A stretch of DNA of 64,000 nucleotides from Thermoanaerobaculia bacterium (lineage in GTDB: Bacteria > Acidobacteriota > Thermoanaerobaculia > Gp7-AA8), in the NCBI GenBank assembly GCA_035626775.1, contig DASPNA010000155.1:63-64062 (forward strand), given 5' to 3'. Shown here in pieces: positions 10,304 to 49,600 of the stretch. Within the stretch, counting starts at the first letter, position 1, and the number at the start of each line of letters is the position of its first letter. The notes below the pieces were generated by a model that saw only the letters and a list, made by a program, of their open reading frames with translations, made no database searches and was not told the DNA's origin. The position numbers were made by a program, and so were the translations under genes.

Positions 10304-13300
10304 TCATCGCGTCACGAGATCGCGCGTCTCCTGCAATTGTCTTGCGAGCACTTTGCCGATTGCGTGTAAGGGCGCGGGGCAGGTCATTTCGTCGTGGGTG
10401 GAGGCGATGGGGTGAACGTGGATGCGGCCTTTGATGAAGGGTTGCCAGGATTCGCGGCAGCTTTCGCTGCCGCTGTTGAAAGCGGCGGCTTTGCCGCCGC
10501 ACTCCATAGCTGCGCTGAAGAACACCAGATCTCCGTCGAAGCGTTCGGGACGGAAACGGGACATGAGGCGGACGTTGTGTACCGCGACCGTTAGCAGGCG
10601 CTCCATGTGCTCAGCGTCGAGACCTTGTGGGATTTGTAGATTCGCCTTCCACGTCTCGAGGTCCGCGTCCGTGAGGTCGAAGGGTTCCGCGCTCGGATAT
10701 GCGTCCATGATTGCGAGCAGTGCAACGTCGGTCCGGCACGCGATCGCGTGCGCGATCAGTCCGCCGAACGACCAGCCGAGGAGGTGATACGGGCCTTCGG
10801 GCTGGATGGTACGGATCATTTCCAGATAGCGCTCCGCCGTCGCTTCGATGCTGTCGAAAACGAGACCGGGCGTGGCGATGCCGGGGGCTTGCAGGCCGAT
10901 GATCGGGCGGTCGGCGCCGACGTCGCGCATCAAGCCCGCGTAGCTCCAACTGAGGCCGCTGATCGGGTGGATGCAGAACAGCGGAGGCAGTTCGCCTCGA
11001 CCGCGCAGCGGCAAAATGAAATCGAACGGGCTCTCGCTCGGCGCGCGACGCTCGATGCGTTCCGATAAACGCGCGACCGTCGGCGCGTCGAAGAGTGCGC
11101 GGATCGGCAGGTCGATGCCGAGGATGGTGCGGGCGCGGCTGATGAGGCGCGTGGCGAGGACCGAGTGGCCGCCGAGGTCGAAGAAATCGTCGTCGATGCC
11201 GACGCGGTCGAGCGACAACACATCCGCGAACAGATCGCATAGCACCTGCTCCTGCGGAGTGCGCGCAGGGCGGAACGTTCCGCTTTGCCGCTCTGGCGCG
11301 GGCAACGCGCGGCGATCGAGTTTGCGATTGGGCGTGAGCGGGAGTGCGTCGAGAACGACGAACGCGTTCGGGATCATGTAGTCGGGAAGACGCTCCGCGA
11401 GAGCGGTGCGTAGCGACCCCTCATCCGCCCTTCGGGCACCTTCTCCCCTCGCGGAGGGGAGAAGGTTACTGGTGAGGACGAGATAGGCGACGAGCTGCTG
11501 GTCGCGTGCGATGACCGCGGCCTGCGCGACGTCGGGCATCGACGTCAGCGCCGCCTCGATCTCGGCGGGCTCGATGCGGAAGCCGCGGATCTTCACCTGG
11601 CTGTCGGTGCGGCCGAGGAAGTCGATGGTGCCGTCGGCGCGGCGGCGGGCGAGATCGCCGGTGCGATACATGCGCGCGCCGGAGACGCTCGCGTATGGAT
11701 CGGCGACGAAGCGCTCCGCGGTGAGCGCGGGACGGCCGCGATAGCCGCGCGCGAGACCTTCGCCGCCGATGTACAGCTCACCGGCGACGTTGTTCACGGT
11801 GGGCTGCAGGCCGGAGTCGAGCACGTACATCCGGTAGTTCGCGAGTGGCGTTCCGAGTGACACGGCGCCGCTCGTGTTCTCCGCGATGTCGTCGGCGATG
11901 ACCGTGCGCGCACTCGCCCACACCGTAGCTTCGGTGGGACCGTAGAGATTCACGACGTCGCTTCCATGTGCGCGCAGCGCACGCGCGAGCTCGGCCGGCA
12001 GCGCCTCGCCGCCGGCGAAGATGCGCAGCGCGTGGAGCGATGCCGGATCGTGCTGCAGCAACAGTTCCCAGTGACTGGGCGTGGCTTGCAGCGAATCGGC
12101 GGCGCTCCTGCGAATGAGCGACGCGAGCGCAGCAGGATCGCGCGCCTCGTCGGTCGCGGCGAGAATCACACGCGCACCGTGGCAGAGCGGCAGGAAGAAC
12201 TCGACGATCGAGATGTCGAAGGCCATGGTCGTGACGGCGACGTGGCGATGGCCGGGCGTGAACGCGGCGACGTCCTGCATCGCGTCGAGAAACACGGACA
12301 ACGCGGCGTGCTCGATGACGACGCCTTTCGGCTTGCCGGTCGAACCGGAGGTGTAGATGACGTACGCGGCGTCGCGCGGATGCAGCGGCGCGATGCGATC
12401 GGCATCGGTCGGATCGTGCGCAGGCATGTTTTGCGAGGCGCTGATCGCCGCGCGCGAATGGAGCACGATGGCGGGCATCGCGTCGGCAACCATCGCCTCG
12501 AGTCGCGCGGCCGGAAATTGCGGATCGAGTGGCAGGTATGCGGCGCCGGACTTGAGCACCGCCAGCAGTGCGATGACCATTTCGATCGAACGCTCGACGC
12601 GCACGCCCACGATCACGCCGGGACCGGCGCCGTCGGCGATGAGATGGTGGGCGAGGCGGTTCGCGCGCGCGTTGAGCTCCGCGTAGGTAAGGGATTCGTG
12701 ACCGGATACGAGGGCGATTTCGTGGGGAGTGCGGCTGACTTGGCGTTGGAAGAGGTCAGGGAACGATCTGGAGCGACGCGCTCTCAACCCGTCGATCGTG
12801 CCCGACGGGCTGAGACCCCGTCGCTCCAGATGGTCGTGCGAGACGCCGAGGCGGTGCAGCGGCGCAGTTGGATCCATGAGCGCGGCTTCGAGCAAGCCGA
12901 GGAACATCGTCGCGATCGTGTCGATGTCGTCGATGTGCTCAGCGCTGTAGTCCAGTCGCACGAGCAGCCGCTCGCCCGGCATTACCATCAGCGTGAGCGG
13001 GTAGTGCGTCGCGTCGCGGCCTTCGGTGCCGACGATGCGCAGCGCGCGATTCTCGTCGTTGATCGCGGACGCGTCGAGCGGATAGTTCTCGAAGATCAGC
13101 AGGGTGTCGAACAGCTCCCCTGCTCCGGCGACGCGCTGGATCTCGCTGAGACCGACGTACTGGACGGACATCAGCCGCGCCTGTCGTTCCTGCACGCGCG
13201 CGAGCATTGTTGCGAACGGCGTGGCGGGATGCAGTTGCACGCGCAGCGGCAGCGTGTTGATGAACAGGCCGACCATCTGCTCGACGCCCGCGACTTCGGC

Positions 13301-46600: not shown

Positions 46601-49600
46601 CGCGCAACCCCTCATCCGCCCTTCGGGCACCTTCTCCCCTCGCCGAGGGGAGAAGGCTACCCAGGGCAGCCGTCGCCCCGCTTGCGGGGAGAGGGTGGCC
46701 GAAGGCCGGGTGAGGGGTGGCCACAACATACGCGACGAGCTGCCTCCCGCCCGGTCCATCATCGCGCGCGATCACCACCGCCTGCGCAACGTCGGCATGC
46801 GCCATCAGTGCGGCTTCGATCTCGCCGAGCTCGATGCGGAAGCCGCGCAGCTTGACTTGCCCGTCGGTGCGGCCGAGGAAGTCGATGGTGCCGTCGTGAC
46901 GCCATCGGGCCAGGTCACCGGTGCGATACATGCGCGCACCTTCTTCGTGTGAGAACGGATCGGCGACGAAACGTTCCGCGGTGAGCGCGGCGCGATGGAG
47001 ATAGCCGCGCGCGAGTCCGGCGCCGGATGTATACAACTCGCCCGCGACGCCGATCGGCAGCGGCTGCAGATTGGCGTCGAGCACGTACACACGCGTGTTG
47101 TTAATCGGGCTGCCGATCGAGACGCCGTTGCGCAGTTCGTCGTGCGGCGGCACGGGATAGCACGTGGTGTAGGTCGTGTTCTCGGTCGGGCCGTACGCGT
47201 TCACGATGCGGCATTGCGGATGCGCGGTGCGCAGCGCGAGCACTTGTTCGGCGGGCACGACGTCGCCGCCGGAGAAGAGTTGGCGCACGCCGGTCAGCCA
47301 CTGGATCCCGTCGTTGACCATCTGCACGAAGAGTCCCGACGTGAGGAACAGCGTGTTCACGCGATGGCGTTGAATCGCGGCGCCGATCTCGTCGATGTTC
47401 AGACGACCGGCCGGCGCGATGGCGAGCACGCCGCCGTTGAGCAACGCGCCCCAGATCTCGAATGTGGCCGCGTCGAAGATGAGCGGCGCGAGTTGCAGCA
47501 GGCGCGACTGGGAATCGAGCGCTCCGTAATTTTGGTCGCGCGCGAGCCGCACGACGCCGCGATGCGGCACGAGCACGCCCTTCGGTTTGCCGGTCGAGCC
47601 GGACGTGAAGTTCACGTACGCGATGTTGTCCGGATGGACGAAGATGCCGGGCTCGTTGTCGCATTCGTTGGTGAGATCGTCGAACGTGATTACGCGCTCT
47701 ACGGCGTGCGCGTAAAAATCGCGTTCGCTTTCGACGGTCACGAGATGGCGCAGCGCGCAGTCCTCGATGAGTTGCTCGCGGCGCAACGGCGGCAGCTCCG
47801 CATCGATCGGCACGTATGCGCCACCCGCTTTGAGGATGCCGAGGATGGCGGCGATGGTGTCGAGCGAGCGCGGCATGCTCAGACCGACGAGATCGTCCGT
47901 GCGTACGCCGCGCGCGATGAGGAGATGCGCGATGCGGTTCGCACGGGCGTCGAGTTGGCGATAGGTAACCTTTGGAGTGCGGCAGCGACAGCTGCCGCTT
48001 TCAGAGCGATGGCCGCAGCCACCGCCCTCCAAAGCAATCGCATCAGGCGTACTTGCGACGTGCGATGCGAACGCATCGATGATCGTCGACTGCGCGTCGC
48101 GGCGGCTCTGCCGCCGCTTCGGAAAGCGGCAGCTATCGCAGCCGCACTCCATACGCGACAACATCTCGCGCTCACCCGCGTCCAGGATGTCGAGGCGATG
48201 CAGCGGCACGTCGGGATCGGCGACCGCGGCCTCCAGCAGGTGCACGAGTCGCGCACCGATGACATTGGCCTGCGCGCGATCGATGGACGCGGGATCGTGT
48301 TCCAGGCGCAGCAGCATCCTCTCGCCAGGCACCACCACGAGCGTCAGCGGATAGTTGGCCGTGTCGTGCCCTTCGAGGCCGACCAGGCGCAGCCCGTCCG
48401 CATCGCTCGCAAGCTGAGCGCGATCGAGCGGATAGTTTTCGAACACCATCAGCGTGTCGAACAACTCGCCGAGTCCCACCGCGCGCTGGATCTCCGCGAG
48501 GCCGGCATGCGTGAACGGCAACATGCGCGCGTGCTCGAGTTGCAGTGCCGCGAACAACTCGCTCAACGTCTGCGCGGGCCGCACCTGCACGCGCACCGGG
48601 ACAGTGTTGATGAGCAGGCCGATCATCTGCTCGGCGCCGGCGACTTCAACCGGCCGCTCCGACATCGTCACGCCGAACACGACGTCATCGCGGCCGGTGA
48701 GCCGCGACAGCAACACCGCCCACAGGCCCTGCACGAGCGTGTTGAGCGTGATCGCGCGATCGCGCGCTGCCCGCTGTAAACACGACGTCAGCTCTTCAGG
48801 CAGCTCGCGCATCCAACGCTCCGGCATCACCGGCGCGGCGCCGGTCGCGCGTGCCGGGACGAGGCGCGATGGCTCGTCGAGATCATGCAATGCATCGCGC
48901 CACGCGTCGAGCGCGCTCGTTTTGTCCTGGCGCTCGAGCCACGCGAGATAGTCCGCGTATGCCCGTGCGGGAGGCAGATCCTCGTTGCGATACAGCGCGA
49001 GCAGTTCGCCGACGAAAAGCGGCGTCGACCAGCCGTCCATCAGCATGTGATGGTTGGTGATGACGATCAGGTTGCGGTCGTCTGCGAGCGCAATTCGCAT
49101 CACGCGCAACAGCGGCGCCTCGGACAACACAAAACGTTGCGCCCGATCGGCAGCGAGCAATTCCTCACGTCGCGCTTTCTGCGCAGGCGCGTCGAGCATG
49201 GAGAGATCGATGTCGCTCCACGGCAGCACCACGTCGCGCGCGATGACCTGCACCGCGCGCGGTAGTCCTTCATGCCGCACCGCGACCCGCAGGTTCGCGT
49301 GCCGCGACAACATCGTTTCCGCCGCGCGGTGCATGCGCGACGCGTCGAGCTGCCCTTCGAGGTCGAGCACGAGTTGCACGGTGTAGAGATCGGGCACGCC
49401 TTCGTCGTACAGCGTGTGAAACACGAGCCCTTCCTGCAGCGGCGAGAGCGGCAGGACGTCTTCGAGGCCGGGATGGAATACTTCCAGGCGCTCGATTTCG
49501 TTTTGCGTCAGATGCAGCAGCGGGAAGTCGGACGGCGTGTGTCCCCCACCAAGTTGCGCCTGTTCGACAAGTGCTTCCAGCGCGTGCATCCACCGCGCGG

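Follow-up and report, generated by a model that had tools for sequence, protein, structure and literature searches.

How a single short palindromic DNA element came to be placed in the same loop of eight out of ten adenylation (A) domains of one assembly line is the question raised by the 64,000-nucleotide stretch of contig DASPNA010000155.1 of a Thermoanaerobaculia bacterium (the window; G+C content of ~66%). The element lies within an operon of three intact, contiguous nonribosomal peptide synthetase/polyketide synthase (NRPS/PKS) genes on the minus strand (10304-53600). Genes G1 (34677-53600, minus strand, 6307 aa, domains A1-A5), G2 (26698-34677, minus strand, 2659 aa, A6-A7), and G3 (10304-26701, minus strand, 5465 aa, KS-AT-KR-T, A8-A10, and TE) make up an assembly line of ten NRPS modules and one PKS module that ends with a thioesterase. 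Results of our analysis lead us to propose, at roughly even chances, that a few insertions of this element (at least two) were spread with duplicated or recombined Asub-T segments, and that the copies decayed or were amplified in frame while being maintained at the nucleotide level.

The element and its place in the adenylation domains

The A-domain copies of the element run on the minus strand, which is the coding one, and lie between motifs a8 (GRxDxQVKxRG) and a9 (LPxYMIP); they begin 2-4 residues past LVAY and directly precede (S)(L/I)RxxLxxRLPxYMIP. The occupancy of this one loop in eight A domains, claimed in the original prediction, was borne out by motif mapping, a codon-level read-out, and a unit search. 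The claim that A1 and A4 lack the element also holds: both have empty native a8-a9 loops (LVAYVAADSGASIDRAALRRALAAKLPEHMVP at 50985-51080 in A1; 39408-39482 in A4; both on the minus strand), with an a8-to-a9 spacing of 66 aa and 58 aa, respectively, vs. 75-186 aa in the eight occupied domains. Chance is excluded as the source of this pattern, since the junction pattern matches seven times in the window and not once in 100 shuffles. Our comparison set comprised 148 giant NRPS representatives with 600 A domains and 75 metagenome NRPS loci with 136 A domains. A repeat-derived insert at a8-a9 was found in none of these 736 domains, as opposed to eight out of ten domains here (Fisher P = 2e-17).

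The element consists of two inverted units of ~53 bp, B and C, which are placed head to head with their tails outward and make up ~110 bp in all; its limits were defined as CCCCTCAC...GGATGAGGGG. Each unit comprises GTAG, a hairpin with a 12-bp stem, a T, and the tail GSCCGAAGGSCGGRTGAGGGG (G(G/C)CCGAAGG(G/C)CGG(A/G)TGAGGGG) with a GAA-looped mini-hairpin, the C half being the same kind of unit on the opposite strand. The 12-bp stems are CCTTCTCCCCTC/GAGGGGAGAAGG and CCCTCTCCCCGC/GCGGGGAGAGGG. A 110-nt copy, such as that of A5, folds end to end as one long hairpin (DNA fold of -42.8 kcal/mol, z = -5.8). The GTAG tag is directly 5' of the B stem in A2, in A9 (twice), and in an intergenic copy described below, and is changed to GTAA, GTGA, GGAG, or GTCG in the remaining B units. 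Its counterpart on the other strand, CTAC, adjoins the C stem in A5-A9.

All eight copies have the same orientation, with the B half promoter-distal, according to both the codon-level read-out and the unit search, and all are read in frame to a common 3' end, ...(RGE)GARRADEG, as had been predicted. The structural variants reported earlier (full, B only, hairpin-deleted, 2x, and 4x) were recovered as described. Full 110-bp doublets are present in A2 (46608-46717, within G1), A5 (35088-35197), and A7 (27169-27278), whereas the copy of A10 (11417-~11475) is a B unit with a GTAA tag that follows a 7-nt remnant of the C end (CCTCACC); these four copies form phase group 1 (see below). The other four copies form phase group 2. 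That of A3 (43491-43568, 78 bp) has lost the C hairpin and spacer (33 nt), and its B hairpin has a 4-nt loop. The copy of A6 (31486-31875) is composed of a C tail and four tandem 93-bp units, each consisting of the C hairpin, the spacer, the B unit, and host TTGCGC. In A8 (19946-20029, 84 bp), the B hairpin (27 nt) has been precisely excised, leaving GTAG|GTGCCC. In A9 (15617-15823), a C unit, a long spacer, and a B unit are followed by an exact 84-bp tandem duplication that takes in the host codons FRRYLA. The coordinates first proposed pointed to real copies; those of A2 (46618-46727) and A7 (27180-27289) were displaced by 10 nt and 11 nt, respectively, and the start given for A6 (31480) included 6 nt of host TTGCGC.

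The site is a known one. In interrupted A domains, the a8-a9 interruption boundary has been defined as L(V/A/I)(A/G)(Y/F)xxx (Lundy et al. 2020, PMC8341866), and the start of our element coincides with it exactly. The a8-a9 spacing in the 600 A domains of giant NRPS representatives has its mode at 68-70 aa, and the sole large inserts among them are M-type domains of 338-527 aa (in P0130, P0185, and P0259), which are located at the insertion point of the element; the 136 A domains from metagenome loci give the same picture. Interrupted A domains of the A8-M-A9 type (PMC8341866; TioS, 5wmm) and the A domains described here have an identical insertion point, behind the last strand before the a9 helix, in a loop that takes inserts of hundreds of residues. 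The match of A7 to the interrupted TioS domain stops at LVAYVV, and the 34-aa insert of A7 corresponds to four residues of LgrA (6mfy). In an AlphaFold model of A7, the insert (residues 443-467, pLDDT below 50) lies between the beta-hairpin ending with LVAYVV and the helix starting with SLRNAL. No Pfam family was found in the 130-aa and 69-aa inserts. Unlike the M domains, the insert is of low complexity and derived from a DNA repeat, and the model predicts that it is a disordered peptide, not a folded catalytic domain (M, KR, or Ox). The insert of A6 (domain at 31363-33189) adds 128-130 aa (128 by a8-a9 spacing as compared to A4; 130 in the codon-aligned insert peptide) and splits the Pfam AMP-binding_C match, of which only profile positions 42-76 were found in a direct scan; the precomputed list of domains for the first G2 module does not contain AMP-binding_C.

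The ten A domains of G1-G3 show no variation in their catalytic A motifs, and the reading frame stays open across the inserts, leaving open reading frames (ORFs) of full length. Six out of six secondary indels in the copies are multiples of three (P = 0.0014), which points to a continued selection for the open frame. Together with the intact A motifs, they indicate that the synthetase is probably under selection as an active enzyme. Judging from the sequences, the copies look like tolerated passengers rather than new enzyme parts.

Kind of element and its distribution

Besides the eight copies in the loops, three further copies were found in the window, namely, two solo units in the synthetase genes and one intergenic doublet. 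A solo C-type unit, with orientation and frame as in B, is located in the C-A linker before A3 (44829-44876, minus strand), and a solo variant unit is in frame in the PKS module of G3 (23810-23860, minus strand). The doublet (56670-56771, minus strand) lies between the genes of an MBL-fold protein and an S8 peptidase; its B unit is 93-94% like the NRPS copies, while its C hairpin and spacer have diverged. In all, 10 intragenic copies and 1 intergenic copy are present in 64 kb, and the intergenic copy and the solo units indicate that the element is a dispersed repeat.

An exact 34-mer of the B unit (GAGGGGAGAAGGYGCCCGAAGGGCGGATGARGGG) occurs in 50 stretches of reference genomes and metagenome-assembled genomes (MAGs) of Acidobacteriota, Thermoanaerobaculia, Caenispirillum, Hyphomicrobiaceae, Devosia, Rhizobium, Maricaulis, Legionella, and Pseudoxanthomonas. 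Several Alphaproteobacteria are thus among its carriers. The larger repeat around the 34-mer differs from lineage to lineage, the copies in Acidobacteriota and Thermoanaerobaculia MAGs having the same doublet architecture as the window element. Each of the other MAGs yielded 2-8 exact copies, mostly outside recognisable genes, and none of the copies in the 50 stretches is in an A domain.

The assignment of the element as a REP/REPIN-like palindromic repeat is the best explanation of these features. With REP, REPIN, and BIME sequences (Bertels & Rainey 2011, PMC3116915; PMC3733652) it has in common that the unit is a short hairpin tagged with GTAG at its stem, the joining of two inverted units and a spacer into one long hairpin, the dispersed intergenic and solo copies, and the lack of a target-site duplication. 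REP dimers inside ORFs, encoding 20-30 aa, have been described by Di Nocera et al. (2013, PMC3733652). The window unit differs in being longer (~53 bp), in having a conserved tail with a second mini-hairpin, and in that its copies are seen mostly within genes and in one protein family. Two other differences count against the origin that we propose. The exact 34-mer is not lineage-specific and spans several phyla, which is atypical for REPINs, and no RAYT/Y1 transposase was found by Pfam among the flanking genes of the window, nor any ORF with an HUH...Y motif in the window or in the 50 element-bearing loci. No Rfam family matched the window as a whole or, in a permissive scan, the intergenic copy. 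As a lead only, the TIRYT-associated "TIR repeats" of Acidobacteria (PMC3733652) share GGGGWSAS, to which the C stem (GGGGAGAG) conforms.

Of the other classes of palindromic repeats, classical (DDE-type) MITEs share with the element the presence of terminal inverted repeats, its outer tails CCCCTCACCCGGCCTTCGGCCACC and GGTGCCCGAAGGGCGGATGAGGGG being imperfect complements, but differ in their target-site duplication: a direct repeat was seen neither around the intergenic copy nor at any of the eight junction pairs. The junctions do not share a common target sequence either. The Rickettsia palindromic elements (RPEs) and in-frame MITEs (PMC10969869) are similar in that they are palindromes of ~100-150 bp in frame in functional genes, translated as extra surface segments compatible with the protein fold. 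The window element is unrelated to them in sequence and host; moreover, RPEs hit many unrelated genes once each, whereas the window element is found in the same loop of eight paralogous domains and in two frames.

Number of insertions and spread of the copies

The copies fall into two reading phases. Those of A2, A5, A7, and A10 (110, 110, 110, and 59 nt; 2 mod 3) read PHPAFGH..., while those of A3, A6, A8, and A9 (78, 111, 84, and 123 nt; 0 mod 3) read PLTRPSAT.... The existence of two phases requires more than one insertion. The C half is translated in one frame in A2, A5, and A7 and in another in A6, A8, and A9, and although read in two frames it is 92-100% identical, which indicates that conservation acts on the DNA and not on the peptide.

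Separate phylogenies of the A-core and of the downstream carrier-domain (Asub/T) region disagree. In the Asub/T tree, A3, A6, A8, and A9 form one clade (98% bootstrap) and A2, A5, A7, and A10 another (91%), with A1 and A4 outside both, whereas the A-core tree groups A3 with A5 (100%), A2 with A6 and A8 (100%), and A4 with A9 (71%). The phase groups match the Asub/T clades exactly (chance of a perfect match, P ~0.03). As phase and presence of the element follow the phylogeny of this region, eight independent insertions are not required. The paralogous A-cores share 54-66% of nucleotides, with the exception of A6/A8 (84%), and are thus old paralogues. The signal that unites core sisters ends ~130 codons upstream of the junction, so the modules are mosaics with exchange points away from the element. 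The element as the recombination breakpoint of A-core swaps was considered and rejected on the same ground.

The anatomy of the element, its site, the two phases, the disagreement of the trees, the identity contrast, and the in-frame rearrangements are shown by the data; how many insertions there were, how the copies spread, why the element is conserved at the nucleotide level, and which enzyme mobilised it are inferred as parts of one scenario. A REP/REPIN-like element would have entered the surface loop behind the last beta-strand (LVAYxxx|) of the C-terminal subdomain of an A domain, to be translated as a predicted disordered loop of 17-128 extra residues with presumably no catalytic role. 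The eight occupied domains would go back to a few founder insertions, with one for each reading phase and so no fewer than two, and the segment a8-insert-a9-a10-T(-E-C) would have spread through module duplication and the exchange of A-cores. Of the hairpin excisions and tandem amplifications that came later, only those with lengths that are multiples of three would have survived, and the element would have been held nearly constant at the DNA level, whatever the frame, while the coding flanks diverged. Of the two possibilities named in the original prediction, repeated insertion with selection would in this way retain the selection for a tolerated site and frame and the need for more than one insertion, but not eight separate events.

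Apart from the match between phases and clades, this scenario is favoured over recent independent insertions by the derived copies and by the A6/A8 pair. The copies of A3 and A8 can be explained as 33-nt and 27-nt deletions, respectively, of an A6-like 111-nt copy, and the 4-nt loop of the B hairpin is common to A3 and A6. In the A6/A8 pair there are 3 differences in 84 nt of element vs. 18% divergence at third positions of the flanks (P = 7e-5). The element hence evolves more slowly than synonymous sites, and the high identity of its copies is no proof of a recent insertion.

The remaining observations weigh against the proposed origin. The element copies are 90-100% identical across all pairs and both phases, as compared to 63-78% for the flanks (P = 1e-4 to 1e-11), and exact identity ends 0-7 nt beyond the element, except for the left flank of A6/A8 (18 nt). 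Left junctions are 4, 7, 10, or 12 nt past the Tyr codon and right junctions 3 or 6 nt before the Arg codon, in at least six distinct left/right combinations. Taken at face value, the sharp borders and the high copy identity suit recent independent insertions better than inheritance, and the sharp boundaries together with the varied junctions favour such insertions. The Asub/T clades, in part, reflect functional classes of carriers beyond ancestry alone. Carrier domains preceding an E domain differ in class from those preceding a C domain, and here the modules of A3, A6, A8, and A9 are followed by E and have GGDSI carriers, while those of A2, A5, A7, and A10 are not followed by E and have GGHSL. 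Finally, the cluster has no close orthologue in the sets searched, the best identities being 56% among the 75 metagenome loci and 31-47% among 150 representatives (the cluster's own proteins excluded), so that the insertions are not datable by presence or absence in relatives. A protein word-index search with a 117-aa A8-A10 query gave only insert-less fragments of up to 205 aa, a profile search with the insert peptide gave one weak match, to a spurious ORF, and the junction DNA pattern had 0 matches in JGI metagenome contigs (vs. 7 in the window).

The main rival explanation, possible in our view but doubtful, is that at least five mostly independent and recent insertions of one active REPIN master took place, of which only in-loop, open-frame events survived. 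It draws on the identity contrast, the borders and the junctions just described, as well as on the two lengths and phases, and the spacer variant common to the copies could simply be that of the master. It does not readily explain why phase tracks the Asub/T clades or why A3 and A8 derive from an A6-like copy, and the copies of A6 and A8, with their 18-nt identical left flank, are clearly inherited. Its clock argument is weakened by the slow evolution of the element in this inherited pair. The junctions show no common target and no target-site duplication, and all eight copies have one orientation and 3' frame in common though 3-4 of 6 frames are open; for the last reason a stop-codon filter was also rejected as the cause of the fixed orientation. 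Independent insertion also has to be reconciled with the lack of any such insert in the 736 other A domains. The opposite extreme, one ancestral insertion inherited through simple module duplication, would account for the common orientation and 3' frame, the derived mismatch in the C hairpin (GCGGGGCGAGGG), and the similar spacer, and other repeat families are also found at paralogous sites. Nevertheless, it is very unlikely: two phases would need a compensated double frameshift, the loops of A1 and A4 are native though their A-core sisters, A10 and A9, respectively, are occupied, and the element is far less diverged than its flanks. The outcome that would have made the pattern trivial, a single inherited insertion with no homogenisation, is not what the phylogenies and phases show.

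The other possibility named in the original prediction, that gene conversion between similar A8-A10 regions spread and homogenised the copies, is disfavoured and seems improbable to us. The stretch from ~130 codons before to 50 codons after the junction is 70-85% identical in all A domains, the modules are mosaics in which A-core and T trees disagree, and the B units of the neighbouring A9 and A10 are 98% alike. Yet in the vicinity of the junction, insert-bearing pairs (61-74% nucleotide identity) are not more alike than pairs with the empty A1 or A4 (56-75%), also at third positions, which are near saturation (44-59% vs. 38-58%). Besides, exact identity stops just outside the element, junction positions and phases vary between copies, partial-deletion variants have not been overwritten, and the breakpoints of A-core exchange are away from the element. 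We hold it equally unlikely that the copies are kept as useful DNA or RNA hairpins, i.e., gyrase or IHF sites of REP/BIME type or mRNA-stabilising hairpins, about one per module, in permissive coding loops of a 43-kb operon without intergenic space. If true, this would account for the frame-independent conservation of the DNA (notably of the C half) and for the conservation of the exact 34-mer across phyla, and it agrees with the slow evolution of the element in A6/A8 and the spacing of the copies 3-8 kb apart along the operon. On the other hand, A3, A8, and A10 have lost hairpins at no apparent cost, most B units carry a mutated GTAG tag, and several unrelated repeat families pepper the same genes, suggesting passive tolerance. 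An artefact of short-read metagenome assembly, raised as a concern in the original prediction, is barely conceivable. The contig comes from a metagenome assembly, the contigs are of the k141 MEGAHIT type, and short reads have difficulty in resolving tandem arrays of 93 bp and 84 bp. However, the eight structural variants differ and are all in frame, single-nucleotide polymorphisms (SNPs) tell the array units apart, and the same genes were found in two ENA assemblies (ERZ27257325 and ERZ27252492) and one JGI assembly (3300021067), which may come from the same or related samples. Across these assemblies the DNA of G2, including the 4x array, shows 0-1 SNP in 9,980 bp, and the 84-bp duplication of A9 is also seen in the JGI protein.

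Consequences and other repeats in the operon

In-frame intragenic palindromic repeats, such as RPEs and REP dimers in ORFs, and the permissiveness of the a8-a9 loop are already known. What is new here is the presence of one element in the same loop of eight out of ten paralogous domains of a single assembly line, its reading in two frames, and its sequence conservation across phyla; in a full-text literature search, no earlier description of A domains with such repeats came up. The locus may be regarded as a natural tolerance experiment, in which the a8-a9 loop takes 17-128 unrelated, probably disordered residues in eight different A domains of an apparently functional assembly line. This lends support to the use of the loop in engineering, as a place for tags, linkers, or embedded domains, and tolerated loop inserts suggest how interrupted A domains could first arise. 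REP-like repeats can evidently persist inside essential coding regions of giant genes, in two frames and with DNA-level conservation, which bears on what maintains such repeats. In annotation, the inserts break the detection of AMP-binding_C and can pass for novel domains. Should the copies turn out to be no more than passengers, the findings would have modest practical consequences.

The operon is flanked by genes encoding an ABC exporter, the MBL-fold protein, the S8 peptidase, a patatin-like protein, an RHS protein, and by his genes. Three other repeat families are also in frame in G1-G3, often at paralogous positions; none of them was detected in the MAG loci that bear the 34-mer. The second palindromic family (TGGAGTGCGGCAGC...GCTGCCGCACTCCAAA; example peptide ECGSKAAAF) is in frame at many NRPS linker and loop sites. 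A copy is found at one and the same position of each of the four E domains in the duplicated T-E-C units, i.e., the E domains after A9 (14747-14797), A8 (19035-19096), A6 (30592-30645), and A3 (42619-42674), as would be expected if repeats were inherited along with duplicated segments in a genome rich in them. Further copies in the NRPS genes are at 10476-10511, 25136-25202, 39293-39366, 47971-48003, 48122-48157, 50616-50681, and 52335-52356, and intergenic ones at 916-930, 3186-3217, 6584-6623, and 10238-10298. At the N-terminus of A2 (47971-48157), ~60 extra residues before the a1 motif (ECGCDSCRFPKRRQS...GSCRCRTPK) derive from two units of this family read in another frame.

The third family (CTGGAGCGACGGGCTCTCAGCCCGTCG; peptides WSDGLSARR, DGLRARRS, and ERRALSPS) is in frame at 16668-16773, 12766-12833, 28614-28666, 37197-37266, 37569-37614, 39065-39092, and 41737-41767. 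Its doublet at 16668-16773 is situated between a2 and a3 of A9, the other known interruption site of A domains (PMC8341866). The fourth family is made up of GTTCCTCGG nonamers, in tandem and inverted, both intergenic (4018-4122 and 55371-55475) and in frame (22975-23005 in G3 and 45884-45972 in G1), with the peptides GSSGSSEF and RGTPRNPRN. Among unrelated giant NRPSs, P0205 contains a similar repeat-derived peptide at ~residue 1173, probably between a2 and a3 as judged by the flanking sequence, and P0198 contains SPLPLVGEGGERSEPGEG at ~residue 3622, by the same token apparently in the linker just upstream of a C domain. These two peptides indicate that in-frame insertion of repeats into NRPS genes is not unique to the cluster of the window.

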